Shown: piece after piece, positions 5,156 through 60,963 of the stretch
Layout: each line of letters begins with the position of its first letter
How positions within the stretch are numbered: the first letter of the stretch is position 1
Notes under the pieces: model-generated
Databases searched by the model: none
What the model was told of the DNA's origin: nothing
What the model saw: only the letters and a program-made list of their open reading frames with translations
Origin: Enterobacteria phage Ac3
Sequence record: OK040907
Strand: one strand, 5' to 3'
DNA: 64,000 nucleotides
Program-made: the position numbers and the translations under genes

Positions 5156-5599
5156 TTATTCCTTAAAATGTGCTTTCAACATCTGATACAAGGACCATGC
5201 CTGTTCATTATTTTCAATAGTAACTTTCATGACTGGAAATTCTGTGAAATCTTCTATTTGTTCTTGCTCTTTCTCTTCCTGCTCTTGCTCTTCAGCTGCC
5301 TGGTATGGATTTTCCACTTCATCAAAGAACACAGCTTCACTCGTTGAAAGCCAGATAAAATCTTCATCCAAAATATCTTTACCAGAAGATAACGCCAATT
5401 TTCCACTAGATGTCACAAGTTTAGTAGGACGACCAAGATAGTCAATATCTGTAACTCTAAAAGGTTCCATACCAAGACGTCGTGCATAAATTCCGTTTTC
5501 AGTATGGTCCTTGATAAAATCTTCTTGAGCTTGTTTATTTTTAAATTGATACCATTTATTAACTTCAAATTTAATAGCCATTAATAAGTTTCCTTCCAA
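5156..5599 (-). CDS. hypothetical acidic protein
   Basis: 147-aa ORF with [12 protein letters not shown] acidic tract. Confidence 0.55.
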
Positions 5600-5796
5600 T
5601 AAGTTGTACCATCTTCAGTAATTTCGCGAAACACACCATAAATTGGTTGTTTATCACCAACTTTTTCGTACACATAAACCGAAGTCAAGTGAGTAAACTT
5701 ATTAGTATGTTCCTTTTGAACTACTACCAGATTTGGATCAAATAATACATCTTCAAATTCGTCATTAGTGCAATTCTGAACAATTTTACGTTTCAT
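5581..5796 (-). CDS. hypothetical protein
   Basis: 71-aa ORF in operon context. Confidence 0.45.
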
Positions 5797-5809
5797 TACA
5801 ATTTCCTCA

Positions 5810-6091
5810 TTAATTGAACAGTGGAGCGATGCGTTTCAGAAGAGTAGCAGCACCTTTAGCGAATTTTACATCATGAAAAACAGTTTCTTCTTCCGTTACA
5901 ACACGAACTTTAATGTTTTCACAATCCCAATTTTTACGAACAATCTTCAAAAGCTGCAGTAAATCTTTACATTCAGCAATATCGATAACACATCCACGAG
6001 AATCTTCCATTATCGCACGATAACCGTAAGCCATACCATAATCGTTGAAAGATTGCTCGATGATAATTAAGTTTTCCATTTTATTCTCCAA
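5810..6091 (-). CDS. hypothetical protein
   Basis: 93-aa ORF. Confidence 0.5.
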   Translation of the reverse strand: MENKMENLIIIEQSFNDYGMAYGYRAIMEDSRGCVIDIAECKDLLQLLKIVRKNWDCENIKVRVVTEEETVFHDVKFAKGAATLLKRIAPLFN

Positions 6092-6186
6092 GTTATTTTC
6101 TGTATCAGTAGTTGATATTGATATAGTACCATAATCAACTACTGATGTATATAGTTTTATGAAAAAATTTTAAACTTTATGCAAAT

Positions 6187-6606
6187 TTATGCTAAAGCTG
6201 CTTCGCACCATTTTTTAATTTGGAATTCAGGAACTACCATGAACTGGCCTGCAAAAACAATATTGTAGAGCTTGACACCATCTTCTACCCAACGGTCCGA
6301 AATAAAACCAGCGACTTGATTCGTTGTCCATGGAGTTCCATCTGTTGCCGCCGCAATTGTGAATTTATGGTCTTTTACAACTAAAACTGAAGAACAAAGT
6401 TTCCATTTAAATGCGCTTTCTTCTGGCTCAATGAACTGACTTGAGACATAGCCAATGTTACCATCAGCGTCACGAACTTTAACCTCGTTACGACCAAAAA
6501 CTGGATCACTTACAGAAAGAACTTCAACCAGCTTTCCTGCAACTTTAGAACGAGAAGCAACGGATACATATACGTAATCACCAGTAGAGAGATTTACAAT
6601 ATTCAT
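6187..6606 (-). CDS. hypothetical protein, member 1 of a tandem paralog triplet
   Basis: 139 aa; shares N-terminal S.ASRSK.AG.LVEV motif and C-terminal W.EDG.KLYN.VF.G.F.VV motif with 6616-7089 and 7162-7671. Confidence 0.6.
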   Translation of the reverse strand: MNIVNLSTGDYVYVSVASRSKVAGKLVEVLSVSDPVFGRNEVKVRDADGNIGYVSSQFIEPEESAFKWKLCSSVLVVKDHKFTIAAATDGTPWTTNQVAGFISDRWVEDGVKLYNIVFAGQFMVVPEFQIKKWCEAALA

Positions 6607-6615
6607 AATAATTCC

Positions 6616-7089
6616 TTAAGCTTTACGAGGAGAAGCATAACGAGTGATTTCAGATTCTTCAACAACCCGGAAGTCACCTAAGAATACGATATTGTAGAGC
6701 TTTTCACCATCTTCAACCCATTGGTCTGTGATGAAGCCACACATCCTATCAGTTTTACTTGGACCAGCGAAATCATCAATATAATCGAATTCTTCATCAG
6801 TTACAAATTCAACGCCTTTACACAACGCCCATTTAAATTGTGCATTAGACTCAGTGGATTCAACTTCTTCAACAGAAGTAAAATGAGAGCTAACACGAGT
6901 TTCCAGAAATTTAGGACTTACGTAAGCGTACTGAGTTTCAGTTTTTCCAGAACTAGGAATGATTCGAACTTTAACTTCTTTAACACGACCAGTACCATTA
7001 GTACGAAGTCCTACCACTTCAACTAGACGACCTGCAGCTTTAGAACGAGATGCAGACGATACACGCTTAATTTCACCGATAGTAATCAT
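6616..7089 (-). CDS. hypothetical protein, member 2 of the tandem paralog triplet
   Basis: 157 aa; same shared motifs. Confidence 0.6.
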   Translation of the reverse strand: MITIGEIKRVSSASRSKAAGRLVEVVGLRTNGTGRVKEVKVRIIPSSGKTETQYAYVSPKFLETRVSSHFTSVEEVESTESNAQFKWALCKGVEFVTDEEFDYIDDFAGPSKTDRMCGFITDQWVEDGEKLYNIVFLGDFRVVEESEITRYASPRKA

Positions 7090-7126
7090 AATTTTTCTCT
7101 CTTTGTTGTTAAGATTTATTCTCCAT

Positions 7127-7149
7127 GAGAGCCATTATAACAGGCTCTC
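7127..7149 (-). terminator. intergenic hairpin (7-bp stem, 9-nt loop)
   Basis: gagagcc-attataaca-ggctctc between paralog genes. Confidence 0.3.
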
Positions 7150-7161
7150 TATAAAGTAAAC

Positions 7162-7671
7162 TTAATTAAGGATATTAATTACTGCACTGCGTGGAACTAC
7201 ACTAAAATCACCTGCATGAACAACGTTCAGAAGTTCAACACCATCTTCAAGCCACTGGTCAGTTACCCAACCACTTACTGGACCAGCAAATGGTCGACGA
7301 ATTGAAACAGCTTTACACAACAAGTCAGTAGGCTCGATAGGCTTAACCAGAGTACCGTACATACAAGCAATGTCCATATCAAAGTGGAGACCAGTGCTAA
7401 CAGGTGCTTCTTCAATCAACAATTCGAAATCTTGTTCTGTAATATAGACCGTAGATATTGTACCATATAAGTTTTTAATTCTTAAGAATGATACAGATGA
7501 AGCTGTGGCAGTTGATGCAAAAATAGGACCAGCATTTACAATAGTGAAACCTTTACCTTGGGTAACACCAATAAGCTCGCAAAACTTACTATAAGAACCA
7601 TTATTTGCTTCAAACCAGTTTACTTGCTTTTCGTCTTTCAGGATGTAAGTAGCTGTAGTACTGATATTCAT
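7162..7671 (-). CDS. hypothetical protein, member 3 of the tandem paralog triplet
   Basis: 169 aa; C-terminal WLEDGVELLNVVHAGDFSVVP. Confidence 0.6.
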   Translation of the reverse strand: MNISTTATYILKDEKQVNWFEANNGSYSKFCELIGVTQGKGFTIVNAGPIFASTATASSVSFLRIKNLYGTISTVYITEQDFELLIEEAPVSTGLHFDMDIACMYGTLVKPIEPTDLLCKAVSIRRPFAGPVSGWVTDQWLEDGVELLNVVHAGDFSVVPRSAVINILN

Positions 7672-7683
7672 GATGTTTTCCCC

Positions 7684-8187
7684 TTAATCTAAGGTAATAA
7701 AGCCTTTTAATTCGGCATGTGACTTGCGGAACATTACTTGATGACCGCCAATGATAACTTGGTCATCAGGTACTTCGTATACAGCGAGATAAAATCCTTT
7801 AGAAGCTAATTCTTCGCGCTCTTCTCGTGTGAACCATCTCATCATATCATATTCGCTAGCGAAAGCAAAATGATAAAGAGCTATAAACCATCCTGGAATA
7901 TAGTGATCTACGCCTACATATTCTTCTTTCTCAAAATTAGTATTAATTGCTATATTAGCATTTTTAACTAATAATTTGTCTTCATGCGGCACAGGAATTC
8001 TTTTATTATCATTACTATGATGCATAAAATTGGGTCTGTCATAACCTACGCGTAATAACCACTCTTCGCTCCATGAATCTATTATACTCCTGTATGGCGT
8101 TATTTGAACACAAAGATCTCGACGTATTGTTATAGCATCTTCATAATTAAGAATACTAAATGATGATTCAACACGATAAATTTTCAT
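7684..8187 (-). CDS. hypothetical protein
   Basis: start moved to internal Met (MKIYRVESS) which has GAGGA RBS; the longer ORF start would lie inside promoter 8215-8244. Confidence 0.5.
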   Translation of the reverse strand: MKIYRVESSFSILNYEDAITIRRDLCVQITPYRSIIDSWSEEWLLRVGYDRPNFMHHSNDNKRIPVPHEDKLLVKNANIAINTNFEKEEYVGVDHYIPGWFIALYHFAFASEYDMMRWFTREEREELASKGFYLAVYEVPDDQVIIGGHQVMFRKSHAELKGFITLD

Positions 8188-8214
8188 TTTATTATCCTCA
8201 GTAGCTATGGTGTT

Positions 8215-8244
8215 ATAATACCACAACTAACCGAGGAAGTAAAT
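8215..8244 (-). promoter_or_regulatory. early-type promoter (ATTTAC - 18 nt - TATTAT)
   Basis: plus ataata 8215-8220, gtaaat 8239-8244. Confidence 0.45.
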
Positions 8245-8250
8245 AACTTT

Positions 8251-8934
8251 TTATCGTTTTGTTGGAAGAGATAGAGGATCGCATTCTTCCTCTGATGGAG
8301 CGTCTTCAAGACCCATAGCATAGCGCAAAGCATACTTCATCATCAGGATGTCTTTCGCACAGTCATGAATAGAATCATGCGCAACGAATCCATCTAAAGT
8401 TCCTTTTGGAAGAGGACACGTGGTCATATCACGAACAAGGAGAAGTGCTTCAATTCTGGTACGAATATCACGCTGATTCCAGAATTTACATGGTTCTAAC
8501 TTAAATGTGTCAAGCTCATTCTCGGAAACGCCGTTAAGACGTTGAATATCGCGAATGAGATCGACTAAAATTGGAAAATCAAACGACATTCCACGGCACC
8601 AGCCTTGAGATTTCCAAGGATCGATATTATGCGCATTGATGTAATCATTAAATTTTGCAATACCATCGATAGTGCTTACATCTTCATCTGATGGCGCAAT
8701 ATTTTTTCGAGCTTCAGGAGATTGATTCTTCCACCATTCGATAGTGCTTTTAGTAAAAAGACGATGTCCTTTTTGGCTTTTTAAATCAAATTTGATTTTA
8801 ATGCCACGTGAAACTAATTCATCAAATGTTTCAACGACTTCTGGATTAGGGTCAAAAGCAATTACAGCCAAATCAATAACAGCTGCTTTTTCACCGCTTC
8901 CCATTGTTTCAAAATCTATAATAAAATCAAACAT
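8251..8934 (-). CDS. dexA: exonuclease A (DnaQ-like 3'-5' exonuclease)
   Basis: 227-aa ORF MFDFIIDFETMGSG...; size and position before dda match T4 dexA. Confidence 0.85.
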   Translation of the reverse strand: MFDFIIDFETMGSGEKAAVIDLAVIAFDPNPEVVETFDELVSRGIKIKFDLKSQKGHRLFTKSTIEWWKNQSPEARKNIAPSDEDVSTIDGIAKFNDYINAHNIDPWKSQGWCRGMSFDFPILVDLIRDIQRLNGVSENELDTFKLEPCKFWNQRDIRTRIEALLLVRDMTTCPLPKGTLDGFVAHDSIHDCAKDILMMKYALRYAMGLEDAPSEEECDPLSLPTKR

Positions 8935-9176
8935 TAAATTTTGCGAGCCAGATCACGGATCTGACCAACAGTGTAGTCCTGGATGTACACTTTGTTGATC
9001 GGTTCATCGATGAATTTTGCCATGCTTTCGATATCCTTTTGGATCTCTTCCAGAGAGTAAACAATTTTCAGCGCTTTTTCGCGAATCGTAACGTTGTCCG
9101 GACCCGGGTTCTCCTGGATTACTGCTTTAACGTTCGTCATCAGAGATTTGAACTGATACCAAGACAGCTCAATCAT
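8934..9176 (-). CDS. small hypothetical protein in the dexA.1 position, with E. coli-optimised-looking codon usage
   Basis: 80 aa from internal Met MIELSWYQF; ctg/ccg/cgt-rich codons unlike neighbours; paralog pattern with 9169-9429; ATGATTGA overlap upstream and TAATG overlap with dexA. Confidence 0.55.
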   Translation of the reverse strand: MIELSWYQFKSLMTNVKAVIQENPGPDNVTIREKALKIVYSLEEIQKDIESMAKFIDEPINKVYIQDYTVGQIRDLARKI

Positions 9177-9429
9177 TAATAATCGCCTCATAAAGATAGC
9201 TAATTTCGCCTAAAACGTAATCATTGATTGTAACAGTTTTCACTTCACCACAAAAGAATTCTAACGCAATTAAATCTCGTTCAATTTCTTCTAATTGAAG
9301 CATCAACTTACTAGATTCAATTTTTACAGTTTCACGATTTTTACCATGAGCAATTTCATAAATTTCGCTCACTTTATCTTGAAGCAGATAAAACTGGTCT
9401 TTAGTTATTTCCACGAATAGCTTCCTCAA
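9169..9429 (-). CDS. small hypothetical protein (paralog of 8934-9176)
   Basis: 86-aa ORF, native AT-rich codons, shared LEEI...DY..G.I pattern. Confidence 0.55.
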   Translation of the reverse strand: MRKLFVEITKDQFYLLQDKVSEIYEIAHGKNRETVKIESSKLMLQLEEIERDLIALEFFCGEVKTVTINDYVLGEISYLYEAIIND

Positions 9430-9661
9430 ATTTAATTAGTAATTTACAGACACTTTCATCTAGTGTAATTACCGTATCTGTATTACTGTGATATGATTGT
9501 TTTTCAATTCGTTTAATTGCTAATATAGTATCACTTATAAGATAAAGCTTATGAAGGAGCTCAGCTCCTGTTACCATAACATCGAGATTATCTTGCTTAT
9601 TAGTATGCTTCCTTATACCATCTATTAGACGATTTAAATATTTTGAATTGATGTTAATCAT
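9401..9661 (-). CDS. small hypothetical protein
   Basis: 86-aa ORF upstream in same operon. Confidence 0.5.
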   Translation of the reverse strand: MININSKYLNRLIDGIRKHTNKQDNLDVMVTGAELLHKLYLISDTILAIKRIEKQSYHSNTDTVITLDESVCKLLIKFEEAIRGNN

Positions 9662-9667
9662 ATAGCC

Positions 9668-10987
9668 TCACACATAAAACACATCATAACGACCACGTGT
9701 TACACCAACATAAAGAAGCTGCTGAGCTAGTTCAGCATCTGCATAATGAATACAAGGCGTATAAATGAAAGCACGGTCTACAGACATACCCTGAGCTTTA
9801 TGGAATGTTGATGCAGGAAGTGCTTTCACTTTACTAAACTGTGATTTAGCATCCCAAAAATCACTCCACGGAGCCTTTCCGCCTTTATTCCAATTTTTAT
9901 AAGTTTCTGCTGTTTTACCTAAAAACAGGTTAAACTTATATAGCTCTTCATCAGATGAAATTATTTTAATCTTTTCACGATAATATTCATCATCGCCGTA
10001 AGTTTCTACTGTTAAATCCCAATGACGAATTAAGTATTCTCCAGGAACACCACGAGCTTTAACAAACGTCGATGTATACTCTGCTTCTATAATACGAACT
10101 AATTGTCCATTATTAAAAATAATTTCTGATACAGGCTTTCCATCAATTTTATATGTTTTAATTAACGGTTCTTGCATTACAATAATTTCACCGACAATAA
10201 AGTCTTTATCAGTTTCAAAAATCTTTTTACGAATAATGCTATTTAACTTGTCAACAGATTTATTCGTAAATGCCATTACGCGATTTTCAAACAAATCATC
10301 TAGTGATTTGACGATTGAAAAATAATTTACCATAAAATCGCGTAAAGCGGTATCACCAGTAAATCCACGTACTCCATGCCCATCAACAACTTTATCATAA
10401 ATCCATTTACCGTTGCGAACATCAGTAGCTACATCAATAATAGGAGCATTACTGCGTTTAACTTCAGTAAGTTCACACTGATAAAAATCTTTGTGTGTAA
10501 AGAATGGACTGATATAAGCAGTATTTTCTCCTGGGTCAACAGGTCTAATTTGCTTATTATCGCCTATTCCAATTATAGTACACCACGGTGGGATAGTTGA
10601 AAGCAAAATTTTGAAGAGCTTTCTATCATACATTGACACTTCGTCGCAGATTAATACCCTGCATTTAGCTAAATCTGGTACTTCTTTTTGTTCAAAAAGA
10701 ACGTTTTCTTCATATGTTACTGGGTTAATTTTAAGAATACTGTGAATAGTACTCGCTTCTTTCCCCGACAGTTTTGAAAGAATCTTTTTAGCTGCATGTG
10801 TAGGAGCTGCCAAAATGATACCAGTTTCACCCGTAGATATTAAAGCTTCAATGATGAACTTAGTAAGAGTAGTCTTACCAGTACCAGCAGGTCCATTAAT
10901 AGTTACATGATGTTTCTTTTCTTTAATAGCCCTCATAGCGATGTTAAAGGCGTTTTTCTGGCCTTCTGTCAAATCATCAAATGTCAT
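9668..10987 (-). CDS. dda: Dda DNA helicase (SF1B)
   Basis: 439-aa ORF with Walker A GPAGTGKTT; matches T4 Dda length and N-terminus MTFDDLTEGQKNAF. Confidence 0.9.
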   Translation of the reverse strand: MTFDDLTEGQKNAFNIAMRAIKEKKHHVTINGPAGTGKTTLTKFIIEALISTGETGIILAAPTHAAKKILSKLSGKEASTIHSILKINPVTYEENVLFEQKEVPDLAKCRVLICDEVSMYDRKLFKILLSTIPPWCTIIGIGDNKQIRPVDPGENTAYISPFFTHKDFYQCELTEVKRSNAPIIDVATDVRNGKWIYDKVVDGHGVRGFTGDTALRDFMVNYFSIVKSLDDLFENRVMAFTNKSVDKLNSIIRKKIFETDKDFIVGEIIVMQEPLIKTYKIDGKPVSEIIFNNGQLVRIIEAEYTSTFVKARGVPGEYLIRHWDLTVETYGDDEYYREKIKIISSDEELYKFNLFLGKTAETYKNWNKGGKAPWSDFWDAKSQFSKVKALPASTFHKAQGMSVDRAFIYTPCIHYADAELAQQLLYVGVTRGRYDVFYV

Positions 10988-11295
10988 CGGAAAGTCCCTG
11001 CAATTGGAATACTAACAATACGCCCAGTATCTAGAATTCGTTGATATAATCTTTGTGTATCTACATCAGGCTTAACATGTTTAACTTCTATTTTATTAAA
11101 CCAAAACTTGCGTGGAGTCTCAACTAGTCTTGGAATTCCCATACCTAAAGCTAGTTTATATTGGTCTTTGAGAGTAGTAAAAACTCTATCAGCAATCTCT
11201 CTTTCAAAAAACACAGCAGGACGATGTTCATCAAGTGGAACTGGCGCCGTAAATCCGTCTTTGTCTCGGTAAACTATCGCATATACATAAACCAT
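10984..11295 (-). CDS. hypothetical protein in the dda.1 position
   Basis: 103-aa ORF overlapping dda start by 4 nt. Confidence 0.55.
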   Translation of the reverse strand: MVYVYAIVYRDKDGFTAPVPLDEHRPAVFFEREIADRVFTTLKDQYKLALGMGIPRLVETPRKFWFNKIEVKHVKPDVDTQRLYQRILDTGRIVSIPIAGTFR

Positions 11296-11296
11296 A

Positions 11297-12043
11297 TTAT
11301 CCTCGGATAAGTTTAAAAATTGAACAATTTAGCGGGTATCCTCTTTTCAGTTTAAGTTTATCAATAAAAGACAAGTTTTGATACCGCTCTACACCTTGAA
11401 TAATTTTATCACACATATCATATTGCATTTCTGCTTCTGACAACTTTTTCACAATTTTCCAATCCGAGCCTTTAAGAAGAACGTTCAGTTTAACAACTTC
11501 AGCGCCTTCTGCTATGCGAGAACCATCAATACGAGCTTTAAGTGCTATAATCCTTAGCTTAATGTCAGAGGTCTGTTTTGATTTAGAAAGCTGAGAAATG
11601 TGTTCAATTCGATTTTCACGCTTTTTCTGTATAGCTTTAATTTGATTATAAGTCTTTTTGATTTTAGCCCATTTCTTTTCATCTAAATTTAGTTTATGAA
11701 CTTTTTTCGCAGATGAACGACCAATTCGCAAAGCAAATAAATCCCGTTTTTCAATCAACTCTTCTAAAGTATAATCAGAACGAAATGTATTATACTTTTT
11801 CTTTACTGCAATAACATTCCCTTTAATGTATCCAATGTTATTATCAAAACGTTCTAATGATAATTTCTCTCCTTCAATACGATTATCAAAAGGTTCTCCT
11901 GAATAGGCACAAACTTTTTGATCTAAAATGTTCTTAATGTAATTGAAGTCTAAGTTAAAATCTTTAGAACGTCTTTTTGCAGATGCCTGAGTGTGCTCTA
12001 AACGACGTTTAATTTTACGAATTTGATTATTAGACAGTTTCAT
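11297..12043 (-). CDS. hypothetical basic protein, possibly Srd
   Basis: 248-aa ORF between dda.1 and modA positions; assignment is positional only. Confidence 0.45.
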   Translation of the reverse strand: MKLSNNQIRKIKRRLEHTQASAKRRSKDFNLDFNYIKNILDQKVCAYSGEPFDNRIEGEKLSLERFDNNIGYIKGNVIAVKKKYNTFRSDYTLEELIEKRDLFALRIGRSSAKKVHKLNLDEKKWAKIKKTYNQIKAIQKKRENRIEHISQLSKSKQTSDIKLRIIALKARIDGSRIAEGAEVVKLNVLLKGSDWKIVKKLSEAEMQYDMCDKIIQGVERYQNLSFIDKLKLKRGYPLNCSIFKLIRG

Positions 12044-12078
12044 ATTTTTCTCACATCTTACGGACGATTGACTACTAT

Positions 12079-12108
12079 ACTATAACATTTTTACCTTAGC
12101 TTGTAAAC
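12079..12108 (-). promoter_or_regulatory. early promoter (GTTTAC - 18 nt - TATAGT)
   Basis: plus actata 12079-12084, gtaaac 12103-12108, upstream of 11297-12043. Confidence 0.5.
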
Positions 12109-12165
12109 AACTTTATGTAAAAATGCTTTAAAAATTTCATGGTATAATGAATCTAAGTCCTTCCA

Positions 12166-12768
12166 TTATAGATTAAATCCTTCAAAATCAAGAGTATAGA
12201 TAGTGTATGTTGAATACTTTTTATACTCATATCTATCCGCAATTCTAAATACACTTCCAGCTGGTATCATTACTTCTTGTTCATCTGAAACTAATTCCAT
12301 ATTACGATAACGATGGCTATCCGGAAACTTAAAGTTTGGATTGTATTCTTTACAGCGTAGAGCTTTTATAGCATACTCCTGGAAATTGAATACCATAGGA
12401 GCTTTGAATTCAAAAATAACCTGTGTGTTATACTCTAAACCGGAAGCAAAATGTAGAGCTATATTTTTATCATATGAAGCTGATACTACTTTATCAAATG
12501 TAATAATATCAATTCCTTGATTTAACACTTGCTTAGTCTCGACTGGAACACCTCTCCAAAGAGGTTTATCGTTTGGAACCAAACGAGATTTGATTATTTC
12601 ATTTAACCAAGAATGGTCATCTGGTTTGTTGGTAATACAATGAATTAAAAGTTCAATTTCAGATAAATTAAACCCTTCAGAAAGCAATTCTTCACGAATA
12701 GAAGCACGCACCGATGCATCCATTGATTTTATTTTAAAATCTTTTAGTTGCATTACTGAGTATTTCAT
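12166..12768 (-). CDS. modA: ADP-ribosyltransferase ModA
   Basis: 200-aa ORF; size and order (srd-modA-modB) match T4. Confidence 0.7.
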   Translation of the reverse strand: MKYSVMQLKDFKIKSMDASVRASIREELLSEGFNLSEIELLIHCITNKPDDHSWLNEIIKSRLVPNDKPLWRGVPVETKQVLNQGIDIITFDKVVSASYDKNIALHFASGLEYNTQVIFEFKAPMVFNFQEYAIKALRCKEYNPNFKFPDSHRYRNMELVSDEQEVMIPAGSVFRIADRYEYKKYSTYTIYTLDFEGFNL

Positions 12769-18274: not shown

Positions 18275-18907
18275 TTAACCTTTGTTCATAAAAGCGTTGA
18301 AAATTTGGTCATCGATGGAAACGTTCACTTTAGACTGTTCCTCGAACGGCAGTTCGTAACCGCAAATAACGATTTTATGGTCGATACCGAAATAGACAGA
18401 GGCAATGTGGTTAATGTTATTTTCCGTGAAATCCAGGTCCACATCAATGTCTTTCTGGGAAACAGACAGCGGGTAGTTAATACGAATGATACGGTTATCC
18501 TTAACGAAGATGCCACCAACGTACTCGGTGTTACGTTTGAAGTTGACACGTTTACGGAAAGAGAAATATTCCGGTTCTTTGTGTGCACGGCTCATCGGGC
18601 ACAGGGAGTAGCTAGAGTAGCTAATGTCGAAACCTACACCTTCAATATGCGCGAGGGTGTCATGGTTAAACCAGTTGTAATCATAAGCCAGGTCCATGAT
18701 ATTGTAATAAGTAAACGGTACTGGGTTCACATCGTGGGTAGTACCTTTGAAGTCAGCCCATGCAACGATTTCGTTATCTTTTACGATCACAAAAATCGTA
18801 CCGATGAGGTAGCCACGGTTATTTTCGTCTGGAGTGATGTTATAACACTGAGCATCCGGGAATTTACCGTACTTGAACGGTGGGTTTTTATGCATGTAAT
18901 AGATCAT
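18275..18907 (-). CDS. hypothetical protein with E. coli-optimised-looking codon usage
   Basis: 210 aa from ATG at 18907 (MIYYMHKNPPF...), ending SIDDQIFNAFMNKG; ctg/ccg/cgt-rich; starts 1 nt after sp stop. Confidence 0.55.
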   Translation of the reverse strand: MIYYMHKNPPFKYGKFPDAQCYNITPDENNRGYLIGTIFVIVKDNEIVAWADFKGTTHDVNPVPFTYYNIMDLAYDYNWFNHDTLAHIEGVGFDISYSSYSLCPMSRAHKEPEYFSFRKRVNFKRNTEYVGGIFVKDNRIIRINYPLSVSQKDIDVDLDFTENNINHIASVYFGIDHKIVICGYELPFEEQSKVNVSIDDQIFNAFMNKG

Positions 18908-31960: not shown

Positions 31961-32674
31961 ATGAACTATAAACTGATCTACGAAAAACTGATCAGCAACG
32001 CCAAATCCCGTAAACTGGACTGTTACACCGAGTCTCATCACATTATCCCGCGCTGCCTGAATGGCTCCGATGACGCGAGCAACCTGGTAGACCTGACCCC
32101 TGAGGAACATTACGTTGCACACCAGCTCCTGGTTAAAATTTATCCGTCCGAGCCAAAACTGATTTACGCTGCCAACATGATGACTGTATCCACTAAATAT
32201 GCTAAACGCAATAACAAAACGTTCGGTTGGATCCGTCGCAAACTGTGGGAAATCGAAAAAAACAAAGAATTCTCTCAGGAAACCCGTAAGAAAATGTCCG
32301 ATGCGGTTGCCAACAAGGCGCGCCTGACCTGCCCGCACTGTGGTAAATCTGGCCTGTCTGGTAACATGAATCGTTGGCACTTCGATAATTGCCCGAACCA
32401 CCCGAATCCGAAAGTGCGTCCTCCGATGTCTAAAGAACACCGTAATAACATCAGCAACGGTCTGAAAGCAATTATCCTGGAGGAAACCTCTTGCGAATTC
32501 TGCGGTATGATCGGCAAGAAATGCGTGATTGCAGCTCACCGTAACTTCTGTAAGAAAAACCCGAACGGCCGTAAGAAAACCGAGAAAACCGGTACTTGCG
32601 TGCACTGCGGTAAAGTTACGACCTTTGGCAACCTGAGCCGTTGGCACAACGACAACTGCAAGCACAAACACTAA
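31961..32674 (+). CDS. HNH homing-endonuclease-like protein with C-terminal Cys-rich zinc-finger repeats; codon-optimised-looking
   Basis: 237-aa plus-strand ORF with ESHHIIPRCLNGSDDASNLVDLTPEEHYVAH motif; ctg/ccg/cgt codons; stop overlaps gene 46 stop (convergent). Confidence 0.65.
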   Translation: MNYKLIYEKLISNAKSRKLDCYTESHHIIPRCLNGSDDASNLVDLTPEEHYVAHQLLVKIYPSEPKLIYAANMMTVSTKYAKRNNKTFGWIRRKLWEIEKNKEFSQETRKKMSDAVANKARLTCPHCGKSGLSGNMNRWHFDNCPNHPNPKVRPPMSKEHRNNISNGLKAIILEETSCEFCGMIGKKCVIAAHRNFCKKNPNGRKKTEKTGTCVHCGKVTTFGNLSRWHNDNCKHKH

Positions 32675-34359
32675 TTGATCGTAGCAACGGAGAAACGACC
32701 CACTTTCTCCATTTTGATGTGCTGACCGTAGTCCTGTGGGTCGTGGTCTTTGTGGCTGATAATGAAAAAGTTAGTATCTTTCAGGCCATCGAGAATTTTA
32801 GCGACGTTTTTGATACCTTCGGCGTCGAACGCGCCATCGTACACTTCATCCAGGAACAGGCAAGAGATTTTTACACCAGAGACTTTTTCGGCGATGTCAC
32901 GCCAGGTGAACAGGAGGGCGATATCGATACGTGCCTTTTCGCCTTGGGAGAAGGATGCATAAGAGAAATCTTCGCGGCCGCGGGATTTGATAGTTTCGTT
33001 GAATTCCTCGTCCAGGGTGAAAACATAGTCCGCCTCCATAATTTTCAGATAATGGTTGATCTGTTTGTTGAACAGCGGGATGTATTTCTTAATGATCGCG
33101 CCCTTGATGCCGCTGTCTTTCAGCATGTCGGTCAGGATGCCACGGTGGTATTTTTCCATCACCAGGTTGGTTTTAGTCTTCACGATCTTATCCAGCTCTT
33201 CCTGCAGGAGGGCAATTTCGTCCGCGTGGTCAATGAATTCAGAGGAAGCTTTTTCAATGGCAGCTTTAACTTTCTTAGCTTTGTCAACCGTGGTAATCAG
33301 GGACTGTTTCTTGTTACGAATATCGTTCGCCAGAGACTGTTGGGTCTTAATGTTATCACGATATTCGTCCACCAGGACTTTCAGGTTATCGCGGTGGGTG
33401 GACAGTTGTTCAAAAGAGTGGGTGCATTCGCTCACCTTATCTTTAATTTTGCTCACAACTTTATCACCGCTGGACAGTTGAGACAGGCAGGTCGGACACA
33501 GACCGCCCTCGTGGTACATGTTGATAACTTTGTTGTAGCTATCGATTTTGGATTTAATCAGCACGGCCTCCTGGCCAATTTTGTTAAAAGCATCAGTAGG
33601 GTCTTCGTCCAGCACGATGTTGACCAGACGTTCATTCGCTTCCTCGATTTCGCTTTTCAGGGTACGAGCTTCTTTAGCCAGATCGTCGTACATGTTCTGC
33701 AGGCGCGTCAGGTTGTCACCGGTCAGTTTCTTCTGACGTTCTACGTTGTCGTTGTAGATCTTGATCTGTTGGATAATAGAGTCTTTCTTCACATCCAGTA
33801 CCTGGTTCTGAGAGTTCAGTTCACGGATCAGTGCTTTGTTCAGTTTGTCCATCTCCGCCAGGGTGCCAACCTCCAGGAGGTCTTCGACCAGCTTACGGCG
33901 TGCTGGAGTGCTCAGGCCCATGAACGGAGTGTAACCCGCAGTGCCGAGCACAACAATCTGCTTGAAGCTAGCGTAAGACATACCGATCAGCTGTTCGAAC
34001 TCGGCCTGAAAATCTTTGGAAGAGGCAGATTCGTTCAGACGGGTGCCGTTCACAGTGATTTCAAAGACGTTTGGTTTTTGACCGCGTTTGATGTAATATT
34101 TCTTTTCGTCATATTCCATCCACAGTTCTACCAGGAGTTCTTTCTTATTGGTGCTGTTGATCAGCTGGCCTTTCTTAACGTCGCGGAACGGTTTACCGAA
34201 GAGGCCGAAGGTAATAGCCTCCAGCATGGTAGATTTACCGCCACCGTTACGACCAGTGATCAGGGTTTTCTGAACTTTGTCCAGCTGGATATCAACGCCG
34301 TTCTGGCCTACGCTCATAATGTTCTTGTATTTAACACGGTTCAGTTTAAAGGATTTCAT
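32671..34359 (-). CDS. 46: recombination endonuclease subunit (SbcC/Rad50-like ATPase)
   Basis: 562-aa ORF, Walker A GRNGGGKST, coiled coil; protein is gp46-like but DNA is E. coli-optimised-looking. Confidence 0.85.
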   Translation of the reverse strand: MKSFKLNRVKYKNIMSVGQNGVDIQLDKVQKTLITGRNGGGKSTMLEAITFGLFGKPFRDVKKGQLINSTNKKELLVELWMEYDEKKYYIKRGQKPNVFEITVNGTRLNESASSKDFQAEFEQLIGMSYASFKQIVVLGTAGYTPFMGLSTPARRKLVEDLLEVGTLAEMDKLNKALIRELNSQNQVLDVKKDSIIQQIKIYNDNVERQKKLTGDNLTRLQNMYDDLAKEARTLKSEIEEANERLVNIVLDEDPTDAFNKIGQEAVLIKSKIDSYNKVINMYHEGGLCPTCLSQLSSGDKVVSKIKDKVSECTHSFEQLSTHRDNLKVLVDEYRDNIKTQQSLANDIRNKKQSLITTVDKAKKVKAAIEKASSEFIDHADEIALLQEELDKIVKTKTNLVMEKYHRGILTDMLKDSGIKGAIIKKYIPLFNKQINHYLKIMEADYVFTLDEEFNETIKSRGREDFSYASFSQGEKARIDIALLFTWRDIAEKVSGVKISCLFLDEVYDGAFDAEGIKNVAKILDGLKDTNFFIISHKDHDPQDYGQHIKMEKVGRFSVATIN

Positions 34360-34374
34360 TTTGTATCCAATTGT

Positions 34375-35225
34375 TTAGAGGCTAGAGAATTCTTTTACCA
34401 GGGCTTGCAGGCTAGCTTCGATCGGATAACCATTTTTCACCAGCATTTTACGGAACATCACGTGTTTAGGACGGTTATAGCTGATCCACAGTTCGTACAG
34501 TTTGTCTTTGTTGTCCCAGTGGTAACCTTTGCGACGGCTGGCAATGTGAGCCTTACGAATCTCCGGATTTTTCCAGCTTGCAGCGACAGAGTTGGAAATC
34601 GGCTTTTGATATTTTGAGACGGGCACAGCGGAGCGAAAGGCTTACGAGTGTTGAGTTTGGTGCGTTTCATGGTCAGACCGTTTGCCAGATGCCACTGGAA
34701 TTTCTGTTTAGTTTTGAAGTTATTCAGACGTTCTTTGTTATCCTTACGGTTTTTCGCTACGGAGAAGTATTTCAGTGCGCGTTCACGAGCTGCATTACGG
34801 TTCTGTGGGTTGGAGTAATACTGTTGCAGGCGTTTAGAAATGGTATCGGAAACATCCTGTTTGATAAAAGAGTATTCTGCCGCAATCAGATCAACTTCTG
34901 CCAGGCTGAGGTTTTTATAGGTTTTGCCAGACATCATACGATTCAGCGCGTTCAGCATTTTACCGTTTTTACCTTTTGCCAGGAGGAAGTGTGCTTTAAA
35001 GTGGTTAAAGTGGCTGAGGTTCACCAGGTTCCAGGTAGATTTGAGATATTCCGGGAAGATAGATTTCGGCAGCACGTGATGTGCTTCGGTCTTGCCCGGA
35101 GTCTTAACGGTGCTGTTAACGCTAATGAAGTTGATATAGGACTTAGCGTCTTCCTCAGACAGCGCCAGTTTTTCCACCAGTTCTTTGATCAGGAATTCAT
35201 CGTTGATGTCCAGTTTGAAGTTTTT
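34375..35225 (-). pseudogene. HNH endonuclease-like gene, disrupted (frameshift, no canonical start); codon-optimised-looking
   Basis: EAHHVLPKSIFPEY HNH motif in one frame (to about 34640); C-terminal part continues in another frame (34375-34626) after an in-frame TAA; no ATG upstream of the recoded N-terminal segment. Confidence 0.45.
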
Positions 35226-35440
35226 AACAAAAGATTCCTTTTAATGTATCTTTTAGACCATTCTATCATATCATCATAATCTAAAAAGTATTCATCAAAT
35301 TCAGCCATGCAAACAACGCCTTGTGCTGTTTTTGATGTAATATAAATTATTCCAACATATCTAGAATCTTCTTCGGTATAATCAATATTTGCTATAAATT
35401 CATCATTAATGTCAAATGTCGAAAACTTCACAGTATGCAT
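35189..35440 (-). CDS. hypothetical protein, 3' end uncertain
   Basis: native-composition ORF from Met MHTVKFSTFDINDEF; its reading frame runs into the recoded block; contains a motif (FDINDEF) repeated at the start of 34375-35225. Confidence 0.3.
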   Translation of the reverse strand: MHTVKFSTFDINDEFIANIDYTEEDSRYVGIIYITSKTAQGVVCMAEFDEYFLDYDDMIEWSKRYIKRNLLLKTSNWTSTMNS

Positions 35441-46148: not shown

Positions 46149-46319
46149 TTAGTTGCGCAGCTTATTCAGTTCCTCGTCATCGATCCAAGACTCCAGACCG
46201 GACGGCAGAGCACATTCGATCTCCCACAGGAGTTCCTCAATTTTCTGCAGGCGATCCAGTTCCTCAGCCGGGATGGTCACCATGGACGGTGCACGGCTTA
46301 CGTTAATGTCATAGATCAT
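46149..46319 (-). CDS. small acidic protein with E. coli-optimised-looking codon usage
   Basis: 56-aa ORF below track cutoff (MIYDINVSRAPSMVTIPAEELDRLQKIEELLWEIECALPSGLESWIDDEELNKLRN); GC-rich island bounded by native genes. Confidence 0.5.
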   Translation of the reverse strand: MIYDINVSRAPSMVTIPAEELDRLQKIEELLWEIECALPSGLESWIDDEELNKLRN

Positions 46320-49470: not shown

Positions 49471-50495
49471 TAGTTCAGTGCATTTAATGCATTGTTCAGT
49501 TTAGAACGTTGCTTCGTGAGATTTTTGACTTTTTCTTGTGCTTTTTCTAGCATCTTTTCAGCTTCTAACACTTCATTGGTCGCTTTAACGAGTTCATCAT
49601 CTACTGCCTTGATAGACTTCTCAATCGCATCCGCGTGCCATTTTTCAACAGGTTTAAGACTCGGATTTTCAATAGGAAGAAAATTCACTTTATTGAATTT
49701 CCATGCATCCTTATTACCTGAACTATACATCCAAAATTTAGGATCGTTTGATGAGTAATTGGATAAATTTAAATTTAAGTTATCTTGCACTTCCTGCTTC
49801 TTCTCTTGCGTGACTTCGTCCTTTCTCAAAAAATCATATTTAAATGAAACAATCATATCAAGTTCATATGTTGTTGTGTCTAATTTAAATCGTTCGAAAT
49901 GCTGTGAAATCTTAGACCGAACAGCGGCAACAACATCCATATACTTAAATGCTTCTGTCAACTGTGATTTAAGGCATTCACAAATTGAAAGAGAATTTTT
50001 TGTATTAGGTTTAAAGCTAATTCGTGCAGTTCTATTATTTTCTTTTAATGGTCTTACTTCCATCTGAAGAGTATAACCATCAAATTTCAAGTTCTTTAAG
50101 TTAATATCAGAACCTTTTAATCGACTAGCAGTTGATAAAATTTGCTTTAATTGTCTACGGAACAGAGCAATAAATCTCCATTCAATACGATAATGATTTG
50201 GATTGAAAAATCCAGATGATAAATCGACCTTACTCTGACCAACACCTTGAACAAATAGAGGATTTTTATAATCAATAGTTTTACAGAAATCGGTGAGCTG
50301 CTCACGAGCAGTCATTTGTGTAATATATCCCGCTTTACTAAAATGACGTAACCATTCACTGCTATTCATATACTTAAAGTGAATGGAACTATTAACTCTA
50401 TCAGGGTCTAAATTATTTTGGCACAAAAATGTCATAACATCACGAGTATAGCTGGCATTACGAACCATATCTTCAATTTGAGAACGAGTTTTCAT
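49470..50495 (-). CDS. hypothetical protein with C-terminal coiled coil (array member 3)
   Basis: 341-aa ORF. Confidence 0.55.
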   Translation of the reverse strand: MKTRSQIEDMVRNASYTRDVMTFLCQNNLDPDRVNSSIHFKYMNSSEWLRHFSKAGYITQMTAREQLTDFCKTIDYKNPLFVQGVGQSKVDLSSGFFNPNHYRIEWRFIALFRRQLKQILSTASRLKGSDINLKNLKFDGYTLQMEVRPLKENNRTARISFKPNTKNSLSICECLKSQLTEAFKYMDVVAAVRSKISQHFERFKLDTTTYELDMIVSFKYDFLRKDEVTQEKKQEVQDNLNLNLSNYSSNDPKFWMYSSGNKDAWKFNKVNFLPIENPSLKPVEKWHADAIEKSIKAVDDELVKATNEVLEAEKMLEKAQEKVKNLTKQRSKLNNALNALN

Positions 50496-54637: not shown

Positions 54638-55648
54638 TTACTTATAGTAGGAGCGGTGGTTCTCCAGGTAAACTTTTTCCAGAAAGTCATCCCAGAAACC
54701 CATGTCAACCTTTTGCTGCATGCCATTCTTGGATGCTTCCGTGCTCGCAGCCTCCACCTGATCAACTACGTCCTCGAGGAATTCCTGCACGGTTTTGAAC
54801 GGGTGCTTGCCCAGTTTGACATCCAGGATAAACGGCGCATCCTGCAGTGGGTAGATCAGGTCGCCGGTTTTGTAAATTTCCAGGAGCTGCAGGCCACCGC
54901 GGCATGCATGGGACAGAGCTTTCCAGTCGATGCCTTCGTTTGCCTCTGCTTTGCGGGCGCGTTCGCCGTATTCAGCATCCAGTTTATTCAGGGATTGTTT
55001 CAGTTCGATCAGGCTCAGGGTAGTCTGATATTTACGACCCAGCACCGTATAGAAAGTTTGCGGGCCGGTTTTTTCGTGGTTGTGAAACACCCATTCACAG
55101 AATTCGTTTTCCGGCAGGCGGTGTTTGATATCTTCGATTTTGGTACGGCGTTGACCCTGAGTGCCGTCTTCGCGATAAACGTTGCGCTGGTCCGGGATCT
55201 GATTCACGACTTTCAGGACGTCGCGCAGAGCGGCCAGACGGGAGCCCTTAACACCATATTTAGAGGCTTGTTTGCGTACATAGCCCAGGTAAGATTTCAT
55301 ATTGGTAGTGTAGAAGCGGCTGCGGTTGTCCTGAATGAATTTCCAAACGTCAGGCAGATCGCTCTTAACCACCAGTTCTGGCGGCGTATGCAGCATGTCG
55401 AGTGCCACGGTCTCACCGTCCGCAGCCAGTTTGAAAAAATACTTGAGGCTATACAGTTCGTGGTCGATGTCATCTTTGGTATTCTTGCTAGAGGTATTGT
55501 TGGTGTTTTTAGACATGTGTTCTTTCACGTTGCCGATCAGAATGTCACGTGCCGGTGGCACGAAGATCTCTTTGAAGTCGACATCGCTTTCCGGGGTGGA
55601 AGTGCCGTACAGGTGGCTGCCAAAGTAGGATTTCATCACAGTCTTCAT
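54638..55648 (-). CDS. Pol-beta-superfamily nucleotidyltransferase-like protein; codon-optimised-looking
   Basis: 336-aa ORF with N-terminal GS-x11-DVD motif (YFGSHLYGTSTPESDVDF) and candidate third acidic residue in ALDMLH; ctg/ccg/cgt-rich DNA. Confidence 0.55.
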   Translation of the reverse strand: MKTVMKSYFGSHLYGTSTPESDVDFKEIFVPPARDILIGNVKEHMSKNTNNTSSKNTKDDIDHELYSLKYFFKLAADGETVALDMLHTPPELVVKSDLPDVWKFIQDNRSRFYTTNMKSYLGYVRKQASKYGVKGSRLAALRDVLKVVNQIPDQRNVYREDGTQGQRRTKIEDIKHRLPENEFCEWVFHNHEKTGPQTFYTVLGRKYQTTLSLIELKQSLNKLDAEYGERARKAEANEGIDWKALSHACRGGLQLLEIYKTGDLIYPLQDAPFILDVKLGKHPFKTVQEFLEDVVDQVEAASTEASKNGMQQKVDMGFWDDFLEKVYLENHRSYYK

Positions 55649-56109
55649 TATTCAGCTTTGTATTCGATCACCGGACACACTTTCGCTTTGCGCGCTTTCA
55701 GGAACTCAACAATGATAGATTTCTTCGGTTGGATTGGCGGCAGGCCTTTGTAAGCGCGATCGATGTTTTCAACGTGCAGCGCGTAATCTTTCTTCCATTT
55801 GTAGTCTTTGTATTTCTCACGCAGGTGCGCCGGAATCACGAAGGAGCCGATAATCAGGAGAACCACCAGGAGTGCCAGAATGAACGCGGATGGCAGGAGG
55901 GTCCACAGGCTACCGAAGATCAGCCAGCGCTGCAGGGATTCAGCACAGATAATAGTCAGACCAACCAGGATGGCACAACCGAAGATGGAAACGAAAAACG
56001 TCGGGATGGCGATAGACCAGAAGTACGCGCACAGGGTTTTAGGGCGCTGCCACTCGTCGTTAAACAGTTTGAACAGCTTATAGTGCCAAGAGTTTTCATT
56101 AATGATCAT
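55648..56109 (-). CDS. two-transmembrane-helix membrane protein; codon-optimised-looking
   Basis: 153-aa ORF with two long hydrophobic segments; TAATG overlap with the nucleotidyltransferase gene; native RBS upstream. Confidence 0.55.
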   Translation of the reverse strand: MIINENSWHYKLFKLFNDEWQRPKTLCAYFWSIAIPTFFVSIFGCAILVGLTIICAESLQRWLIFGSLWTLLPSAFILALLVVLLIIGSFVIPAHLREKYKDYKWKKDYALHVENIDRAYKGLPPIQPKKSIIVEFLKARKAKVCPVIEYKAE

Positions 56110-60083: not shown

Positions 60084-60514
60084 TTATTTCGGTTTACCTT
60101 CCTTCACGAAGTCTGGGTACGGATAAAAGCCAGAGTAGAAACCTTCGCCTTTGTGGTTGATACAACCTTTGTTGGAACAATAGCACCAGTAATCGAAATC
60201 GCAAGCCATTTCGTCGTTGCACAGGGCGAAAACGACCGGCCATTTACATTTTTCACAGTGCGCGTTTTTCAGGATGGAAGTCTGGGATACCGCCAGGTGA
60301 CTTTCAGGCAGTATTCCTCCACATGCTGTTTGCGACCTTTCTTGTCGATGAAGGTGTATTCAACGAAGGTACCGATGTAATCTTTATCCACGTCGTGCGG
60401 AGAGTTGATCGGGCACTTAGTACGGCAGATGCGTTCCCACTGACGAATGATTACAGCCTTGTTTTTCGGGTCGAACGGGTGTGGATAATGTACTTTTACA
60501 GCAGCGGCTCCCAA
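60084..60514 (-). pseudogene. Cys-rich protein gene split across two reading frames; codon-optimised-looking
   Basis: frame A (TTG start in track) has protein-like sequence to about 60300; frame B continues with HCEKCKWPVVFALCNDEMACDFDYWCYCSNKGCINHKGEG... to a TAA at 60084-60086; no ATG. Confidence 0.4.
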
Positions 60515-60963
60515 TCAACGATTACGATTTCCAGTTTGGAAGAATAGGTGTCCAGGATACCTTCAATGATGTCCCAGTTGCCTTTACCGATGCCGGCGCC
60601 GATGCGCGGCATGTAGATGGTTGGTTTGATCAGTTTGTTTTCACCGAATTCGTTCAGCTCCAGCATACAATTCATCAGCGCAGAATATTCAAAGTTTGGG
60701 CCCGGCTGGAACTGAGTGTACAGGTTAAAACAGTACGCTTTGTGGGTGCGAAAGTACTTTTCATACACGGAGTAGCTACCCAGTTTAGTCACGTCGCCCC
60801 ATTCGGTCTGCAGCTTGTCAGCTTCCAGGATTTTCGGAAACGCTTTGGTCAGCTGACCGGCTACACCCGCTTTCATGGTATGGAAGCAGTTACAGCCGTG
60901 AGCGATGTTTTTACCTTCGGCAAACAGCGCTACGATATCGCCTTTGATGTATTTGACAATCAT
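60496..60963 (-). CDS. macro-domain protein (Poa1p-like ADP-ribose-1''-phosphate phosphatase family); codon-optimised-looking
   Basis: 155-aa ORF with IAHGCNCFHTMKAGVAGQL and YMPRIGAGIGKGNWD motifs resembling Poa1p; ATGA overlap with upstream native gene. Confidence 0.55.
   Translation of the reverse strand: MIVKYIKGDIVALFAEGKNIAHGCNCFHTMKAGVAGQLTKAFPKILEADKLQTEWGDVTKLGSYSVYEKYFRTHKAYCFNLYTQFQPGPNFEYSALMNCMLELNEFGENKLIKPTIYMPRIGAGIGKGNWDIIEGILDTYSSKLEIVIVDWEPLL

Follow-up and report, generated by a model that had tools for sequence, protein, structure and literature searches.

Synonymous recoding of dexA.1, very probably artificial, within a natural array of small genes at the dexA–dda locus of an RB51-like Tequatrovirus sequence

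Small genes of the dexA–dda locus

The window, by which we mean the whole 64,000-nucleotide stretch of DNA that was analysed, contains the dexA–dda segment of a Tequatrovirus, as identified from its list of open reading frames and the best database match. The closest records are those of phages RB51 (FJ839693.1 / NC_012635.1) and RB68, in which the coordinates are identical, and all genes at the locus lie on the minus strand. The features referred to below are the following.

8251..8934, minus strand: dexA (exonuclease A), downstream gene of the operon; sequence unchanged relative to RB51
8934..9176, minus strand: dexA.1, 80 aa; protein 100% identical to RB51 DexA.1 (RB51ORF015, ACP30933.1); 49 of 80 codons synonymously replaced
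8941..8945, minus strand: site that in native RB51 carries an SD-like AAGGA for dexA; native GCAAGGAAAATTTAATG, recoded GCTCGCAAAATTTAATG (junctions compared side by side)
9169..9414, minus strand: dexA.2, 81 aa, GTG start at 9414; native codons; 0 differences from RB51
9401..9661, minus strand: third small ORF, RB51ORF017 / RB14ncORF017c (ORF017 below), 86 aa; phrog_4967; native codons
9668..10987, minus strand: dda helicase, upstream neighbour, which bounds the dda–dexA slot; unchanged relative to RB51

The small genes of this locus are arranged closely, in a manner suited to translational coupling: ORF017 shares 14 nt with dexA.2, the stop of dexA.2 and the start of dexA.1 overlap by 8 nt (ATGATTGA, left unedited in the window), and the stop of dexA.1 shares 1 nt with the ATG of dexA (TAATG). 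In its position, its length and its overlaps with dexA.2 and dexA, the window copy of dexA.1 resembles both the RB51/RB68 gene and that of T4 (NP_049630.1), and the identity of its protein extends to the DexA.1 of RB68. The preliminary description had placed the two outer ORFs exactly (8934-9176 and 9401-9661) and had drawn the middle one as 9169-9429; the TTG at 9429, from which the protein would be 86 aa long, is a mechanical longest-ORF start, and the annotated start is the GTG at 9414 (81 aa). A GAGGA lies 8 nt upstream of this GTG, and the N-terminus that it gives, MEITK, fits the modification at K5 that has been reported for T4 DexA.2.

Proposed kinship of the three small proteins

Judged from their sequences, DexA.1 and DexA.2 are clear paralogues. 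Pairwise BLASTP aligns them at 29% identity over 79 aa of 80 (E=4e-9), both match phrog_1700 (3e-43 for DexA.1 and 2e-49 for DexA.2), and the precomputed annotation of the protein database assigns Pfam PF26837 to all DexA.1 and DexA.2 homologues; our own Pfam-A scan of the three small proteins gave no match, the Pfam copy scanned being one without the PF26837 model. The pattern that the preliminary description, in proposing three paralogous genes, had noted in the first two, LEEI..D followed by DY..G.I, corresponds to the most conserved columns of the DexA.1/DexA.2 family alignment, in which L42, E43, E44 and D48 are invariant and I45, D67, Y68, G71 and I73 show a conservation of 90% or more. 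The phrog_1700 profile is 160 positions long, DexA.2 aligning at positions 1-80 and DexA.1 at 80-159, a length that we attribute to phage ime09, where a 1-nt deletion has produced a natural 159-aa DexA.2-DexA.1 fusion. This fusion is a weak hint that DexA.2 and DexA.1 act together.

For the third ORF, the proposed kinship was not borne out by direct sequence comparison. ORF017 gave no BLASTP alignment with DexA.1 or DexA.2, the comparison of the ORF017 and DexA family alignments by hhalign returned a probability of 0.15%, and there was neither a match of ORF017 to phrog_1700 nor PF26837 on its homologues; by sequence, it is not a strict PF26837 member. These results would be expected if only dexA.1 and dexA.2 were paralogous and ORF017 were an unrelated small helical ORF adjoining them by chance, with a generic likeness in fold and profile. 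The family of ORF017 is narrow, comprising 308 Tequatrovirus records in the phage collection, all at least 90% identical by tblastn, and the gene is absent from T4. In a set of 5.8 billion proteins its homologues form four near-identical clusters, and a HMMER search against 1.84 billion representatives returned ORF017 itself and two long repetitive proteins, which we take as spurious, so that bridging relatives, which would have spoken against a chance neighbour, were not recovered. Local hmmsearch and jackhmmer searches found no further paralogues among the 298 ORFs of the window.

The phrog_5263 profile (77 positions), however, is matched colinearly and over its full length by DexA.2 (1.7e-7), ORF017 (1.8e-5) and DexA.1 (1.5e-3), residues 1-81 of ORF017 aligning to positions 1-74 of the 77, and it is also matched (3.2e-28) by CC31p016, the single 80-aa gene that occupies the dda–dexA slot of phage CC31. 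The predicted structures point in the same direction. The AlphaFold model of DexA.1 (pLDDT 94) has β-strands at residues 2-5 and 62-65 and helices at 6-22, 26-56 and 67-79, and that of ORF017 (pLDDT 86), which was built from 4 near-identical sequences and to that extent favours the chance neighbour, has β-strands at 2-5 and 64-67 and helices at 6-22, 26-52 and 69-84. The two predictions share the same β-α-α-β-α order of elements with nearly equal boundaries, both short β-strands included. When searched with Foldseek against BFVD, the two models gave overlapping lists of small T4-like phage proteins, and the list of ORF017 includes the DexA.2 of BECP11 (probability 1.0, TM 0.69/0.73). Profile, fold and position, as three independent lines, lead us to treat the three proteins as members of one fold family, which would have arisen by tandem duplication; ORF017 is very likely a remote structural and positional paralogue by its phrog_5263 profile, its predicted fold and its place in the array, and an unrelated origin for it seems unlikely. 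The proposal of three paralogous genes held by sequence for dexA.1 and dexA.2 and, for the third ORF, by these indirect lines.

The DexA.1/DexA.2 family (PF26837; phrog_1700) and the sister family phrog_5263, of which CC31p016 is an example, consist of proteins of ~80 aa whose genes lie between dda and dexA in Straboviridae, and they have in common the LEEI..D and DY..G.I motifs and the predicted β-α-α-β-α fold. ORF017 (phrog_4967) stands outside both PF26837 and phrog_1700, and is joined to them only via phrog_5263, fold and position.

Recoding of dexA.1 and of other ORFs in the window

When positions 5200-12700 of the window (7.5 kb) were compared with RB51 base by base, 57 differences were found, all of them at 8943-9168 and hence inside dexA.1, and none in the remaining ~7.3 kb of flank. 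The edges of the edits are sharp and confined to the coding sequence at 8934-9176. With 57 of 243 bases different, nucleotide identity of dexA.1 to its RB51 counterpart is 76.5%, and the 49 changed codons alter 0 amino acids. The GC content of the gene rises from 0.29 in native RB51 to 0.43 in the window, and its GC3 from 0.185 to 0.556. The per-ORF comparison of GC3 bears out the earlier impression that only the first of the three small ORFs looks optimised and that a recoded copy lies beside natively coded relatives: dexA.1 alone is raised, against values of 0.220 for dexA.2 and 0.184 for ORF017, and of 0.268 for dexA and 0.227 for dda. At seven codons two or three bases were exchanged at once (Ser AGT to TCT twice, Ser TCT to AGC, Arg AGG to CGC, and Leu TTA to CTG three times). 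By the Nei-Gojobori method, pS between the window and RB51 copies is ~1.0, that is saturated, as against 0.17, with 4 amino acid differences, for the natural pair of RB51 and T4 dexA.1. If one random substitution is placed in each of the 49 codons, the probability of an entirely synonymous outcome is ~2e-35; together with the clean flanks, the all-synonymous pattern excludes chance.

Among all 479 natural Tequatrovirus records that carry the gene, identity to the window allele does not exceed 77.8%, whereas identity to the native RB51 allele is 91.8-100%. Searches of plasmids, IMG/VR, GTDB genomes and JGI metagenomes recovered neither an exact nor a near copy of the recoded dexA.1, and a recoded RB51 was not found in the literature.

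The recoding leaves the coding sequences near dexA.1 undamaged, since its stop is still TAA and the ATG of dexA in TAATG is intact. RB51 dexA.1 combines phage-type codons with the SD-like AAGGA for dexA, whereas the window copy has E. coli-type codons and has lost AAGGA, the change of Arg78 from AGG to CGC having erased the sole SD-like element before dexA. A 9-bp hairpin (GGUCAGAUC...GAUCUGGCU), 12 nt upstream of the start of dexA, has arisen from the new codons, and the local minimum free energy near this start goes from -11.4 (native) to -17.0 kcal/mol (recoded), with a z of only -1.7. If the sequence were expressed, translation of dexA would be predicted to have lost its ribosome binding site and to depend solely on TAATG stop-start coupling. 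Promoter-like and terminator-like scans of the native and recoded sequences gave counts below shuffle expectation, and neither a MotA-box core nor a late-promoter motif was found inside dexA.1 in either version. The recoded copy lacks one weak promoter-like site that native dexA.1 contains on the minus strand; we do not take this as functional evidence.

Over its whole length the window is colinear with RB51 1-64000, with no indels. It differs from RB51 at 1,614 positions in all, which make up six blocks and one isolated SNP, located as follows.

8943-9168: recoded block 1, dexA.1
18284-18902: recoded block 2, 61.2
31966-35226: recoded block 3, the mobB-like endonuclease ORF054w, gene 46 and two unannotated overlapping homing-endonuclease remnant ORFs
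46152-46314: recoded block 4, RB32ORF081c
49918: isolated SNP relative to RB51
54639-56104: recoded block 5, nrdC.11 and RB32ORF096c
60085-60955: recoded block 6, RB32ORF111c, tk.3 and tk.4

Besides dexA.1, at least 11 unrelated ORFs in the other five blocks have thus been recoded in the same way, so that dexA.1 was not chosen for its family, and the suggestion of a selective replacement of one family member has to be given up. Exclusively synonymous changes are also found in 61.2, ORF054w, gene 46, RB32ORF081c, nrdC.11, RB32ORF096c and tk.4. Where no second recoded ORF interferes, the protein of a recoded ORF is kept exactly, and GC3 moves from ~0.2-0.3 to 0.53-0.65. In ten recoded ORFs taken together, 15 codons are unused (ATA, AGA, AGG, CGA, CTA, TTA, TTG, CTT, GGA, GGG, ACA, TCA, TCG, AGT and CCC), and among those favoured are CTG (0.88 of Leu), AAC (0.82), CAC (0.76), TTC (0.73) and ATC (67%). 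The correlation with genomic E. coli K-12 codon usage is r=0.81 for the recoded and 0.56 for the native genes. We take the codon set to be a table of highly expressed E. coli genes from which low-frequency codons have been removed.

The same edits were made without regard to neighbouring genes. Stop codons were exchanged in the recoded ORFs (TGA to TAA, and TAA to TAG in gene 46), and because of these exchanges and of edits to adjacent ORFs, start codons were destroyed at ATGA overlaps, namely those of RB32ORF110c (ATG to ATA), RB32ORF111c (ATG to GTA) and tk.3 (ATG to GTA). The recoding also removed the stops of tk.3 and 46.1, and because each of the ORFs at 34375-34695 and 34602-35228 was rewritten in its own frame, both are scrambled within their 94-nt overlap. 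Synthetic or refactored phage genes, such as those of T7.1 and of decompressed phiX174, likewise preserve the protein and rewrite the nucleotides by gene-by-gene edits, and published phage refactoring separates overlapping genes before editing. In comparison with T7.1 and decompressed phiX174, overlaps were here ignored, and neighbouring starts and stops and one ribosome binding site were damaged. We conclude that the recoding of the window is a naive, automated, ORF-by-ORF back-translation, and the damage at overlaps suggests a design that was never validated or one that exists wholly in silico.

We therefore regard the locus, with little doubt, as a natural three-gene array upon which an artificial synonymous edit of dexA.1 has been superimposed. 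The coding sequence of dexA.1 would have been exchanged for a back-translated synonymous version built from the codons of highly expressed E. coli genes, rare ones being excluded, and this replacement would be one part of the naive ORF-by-ORF recoding of the window. An alternative origin of the recoded blocks would be a chimera of assembly or contamination, in which reads of plasmid-borne codon-optimised constructs had been merged into a phage assembly; codon-optimised phage genes are commonly cloned, and the recoded parts correspond exactly to coding sequences. Yet all six blocks fit the RB51 frame base-perfectly, with neither vector sequence nor indels, the two unannotated overlapping remnant ORFs, recoded with colliding edits, are unlikely cloning targets, and stop swaps that harm neighbouring genes are not the product of an assembler, so that we hold a chimera to be very improbable. 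A natural high-GC3 allele, whether obtained by recombination from another phage or shaped by selection for translational efficiency, has next to nothing in its favour beyond the mosaic nature of T4-like genomes, in which patches of divergence occur, and the sharp contrast in GC3 between dexA.1 and its neighbours; we rejected both horizontal transfer and codon selection on the 57 synonymous against 0 amino acid changes, the saturated synonymous sites and the 7.3 kb of 100% identical flanks, and the serine box switches, which would need non-synonymous intermediates if made stepwise, the AT-rich allele kept by 479 of 479 natural relatives (92-100% identity), the edit edges that match the CDS and the same pattern in at least 11 unrelated ORFs all stand against it as well.

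As the edit is artificial and extends over the window, the contrast in codons between dexA.1 and its paralogues is an artefact of engineering or of in-silico design, and not an evolutionary signal. The genes themselves are known, annotated ORFs of the T4 family, and as codon optimisation the recoding is of an ordinary kind.

Copy number in the dda–dexA slot and its meaning

Leaving the artificial edit aside, the natural array varies in its number of genes, with one copy in the dda–dexA slot of Karamvirus CC31, two in that of T4, and three in that of RB51 and of the window. The array ORF017-dexA.2-dexA.1 very probably arose by duplication of one ancestral gene, which is still the sole occupant of the slot in Karamvirus CC31. 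In RB51-type Tequatroviruses the result is a dense tandem array, coupled in translation, that encodes three proteins of ~80-86 aa, each predicted to have a β1-α1-α2-β2-α3 fold.

Foldseek gave no fold match in the PDB for the DexA.1 model at E<=0.001, the top matches being generic helical bundles, and a search for functional literature on dexA.1 and dexA.2 found none. T4 DexA.2 has been found conjugated to cGAS at K5 by CBASS Cap2 (PMC10097602), and dda.1-dda-dexA.2-dexA.1 of T4 form one middle-phase transcript (bioRxiv 10.1101/2024.04.04.588121); both of these papers call DexA.1 and DexA.2 uncharacterised. We infer that DexA.2 probably functions as a pair with DexA.1. With low confidence, and by inference at every step, the proteins of the array could be small accessory protein-binding modules that act as dimers and are produced in the middle phase together with dda. 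A more specific idea, in which this slot family of one to three copies has been duplicated in an arms race and a DexA.2/DexA.1 heterodimer meets host immunity, perhaps by serving as decoy or target in the conjugation of cGAS by CBASS Cap2, is speculative and improbable.

These results serve first as a flag of provenance: the window is not that of a wild-type phage, and corresponds to an RB51 sequence in which synonymously recoded ORFs account for ~10% of the bases. Signals of codon usage, GC content, horizontal gene transfer and selection in the six blocks should therefore be disregarded as biology. For the natural gene family two by-products emerge, namely that ORF017 (phrog_4967) can be linked to DexA.1 and DexA.2 by fold and position, and that the dda–dexA slot varies from one to three copies in T4-like phages.

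Genes recoded with their proteins intact

Relative to RB51, recoding left the encoded protein unchanged in the following genes.

18275-18907, minus strand: gene 61.2, recoded synonymously, changes within 18284-18902
31961-32674, plus strand: ORF054w, a mobB-like homing endonuclease gene, fully recoded, block from 31966
32671-34359, minus strand: gene 46, essential, fully recoded, block 31966-34359
46149-46319, minus strand: RB32ORF081c, recoded, changes within 46152-46314
Changes within 54639-56104: nrdC.11 and RB32ORF096c, both recoded

Gene 61.2 carries 126 altered nucleotides and 116 of its 210 codons are changed, without a single amino acid substitution, and its GC3 increases from 0.22 to 0.53. 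The proteins are likewise identical for ORF054w (165 nucleotides altered), gene 46 (424 nucleotides, with the stop codon changed from TAA to TAG) and RB32ORF081c (39 nucleotides; GC3 from 0.21 to 0.65). The same holds for nrdC.11 (251 nucleotides) and RB32ORF096c (108 nucleotides), in both of which the TGA stop codon has become TAA.

Damage to overlapping and adjoining reading frames

34375-34695 and 34602-35228, minus strand: two overlapping ORFs, unannotated in RB51
Changes within 60085-60955: RB32ORF111c, tk.3 and tk.4, recoded

The first pair looks like a frameshifted remnant of an HNH-type homing endonuclease (motif 'AHHVLPKSIF'). The two ORFs were recoded separately, each in its own frame, and because these two sets of edits collide in the 94-nt overlap, both proteins are scrambled there (24 and 17 amino acid changes). 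The start codon of the upstream ORF was changed from GTG to GTT. A C to A change at 35226, belonging to the recoding of the ORF that adjoins gene 46.1, converts the stop codon of that gene from TGA to TTA, and a mechanical ORF call lengthens it from 87 to 99 amino acids. Within 60085-60955, stop-codon swaps and adjacent edits hit the ATGA overlaps, and three start codons are therefore lost, i.e. those of RB32ORF110c (ATG to ATA), RB32ORF111c (ATG to GTA) and tk.3 (ATG to GTA); the tk.3 stop codon has become TAT.

Outside every recoded block lies a lone T to C change at 49918, which results in Q193R in nrdC.5. It is absent from RB51, RB68 and all other phage records (best match 99.8%).

The dexA.1 block and the dda-dexA slot

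Two features of the recoded dexA.1 sequence look like accidental by-products. One is a 9-bp inverted repeat, GGTCAGATC CGT GATCTGGCT (8946-8966, minus strand), which arises from the new codons and lies 12 nt before the ATG of dexA; the other is a CCCGGG site introduced at 9103-9108.

In phage ime09 (JN202312.1, 8960-9439), DexA.2 and DexA.1 are fused into one annotated 159-aa protein, as a single nucleotide is deleted immediately ahead of the stop codon of dexA.2. The fusion is either natural or a sequencing error, and hints, weakly, that the two proteins work together. Phage CC31 (NC_014662.1) encodes between dda and dexA a lone 80-aa gene, CC31p016 (9872-10114), matching phrog_5263, the profile shared by DexA.1, DexA.2 and ORF017. 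The slot holds one gene in CC31, two in T4 and three in RB51, and its copy number therefore varies across T4-like genera.
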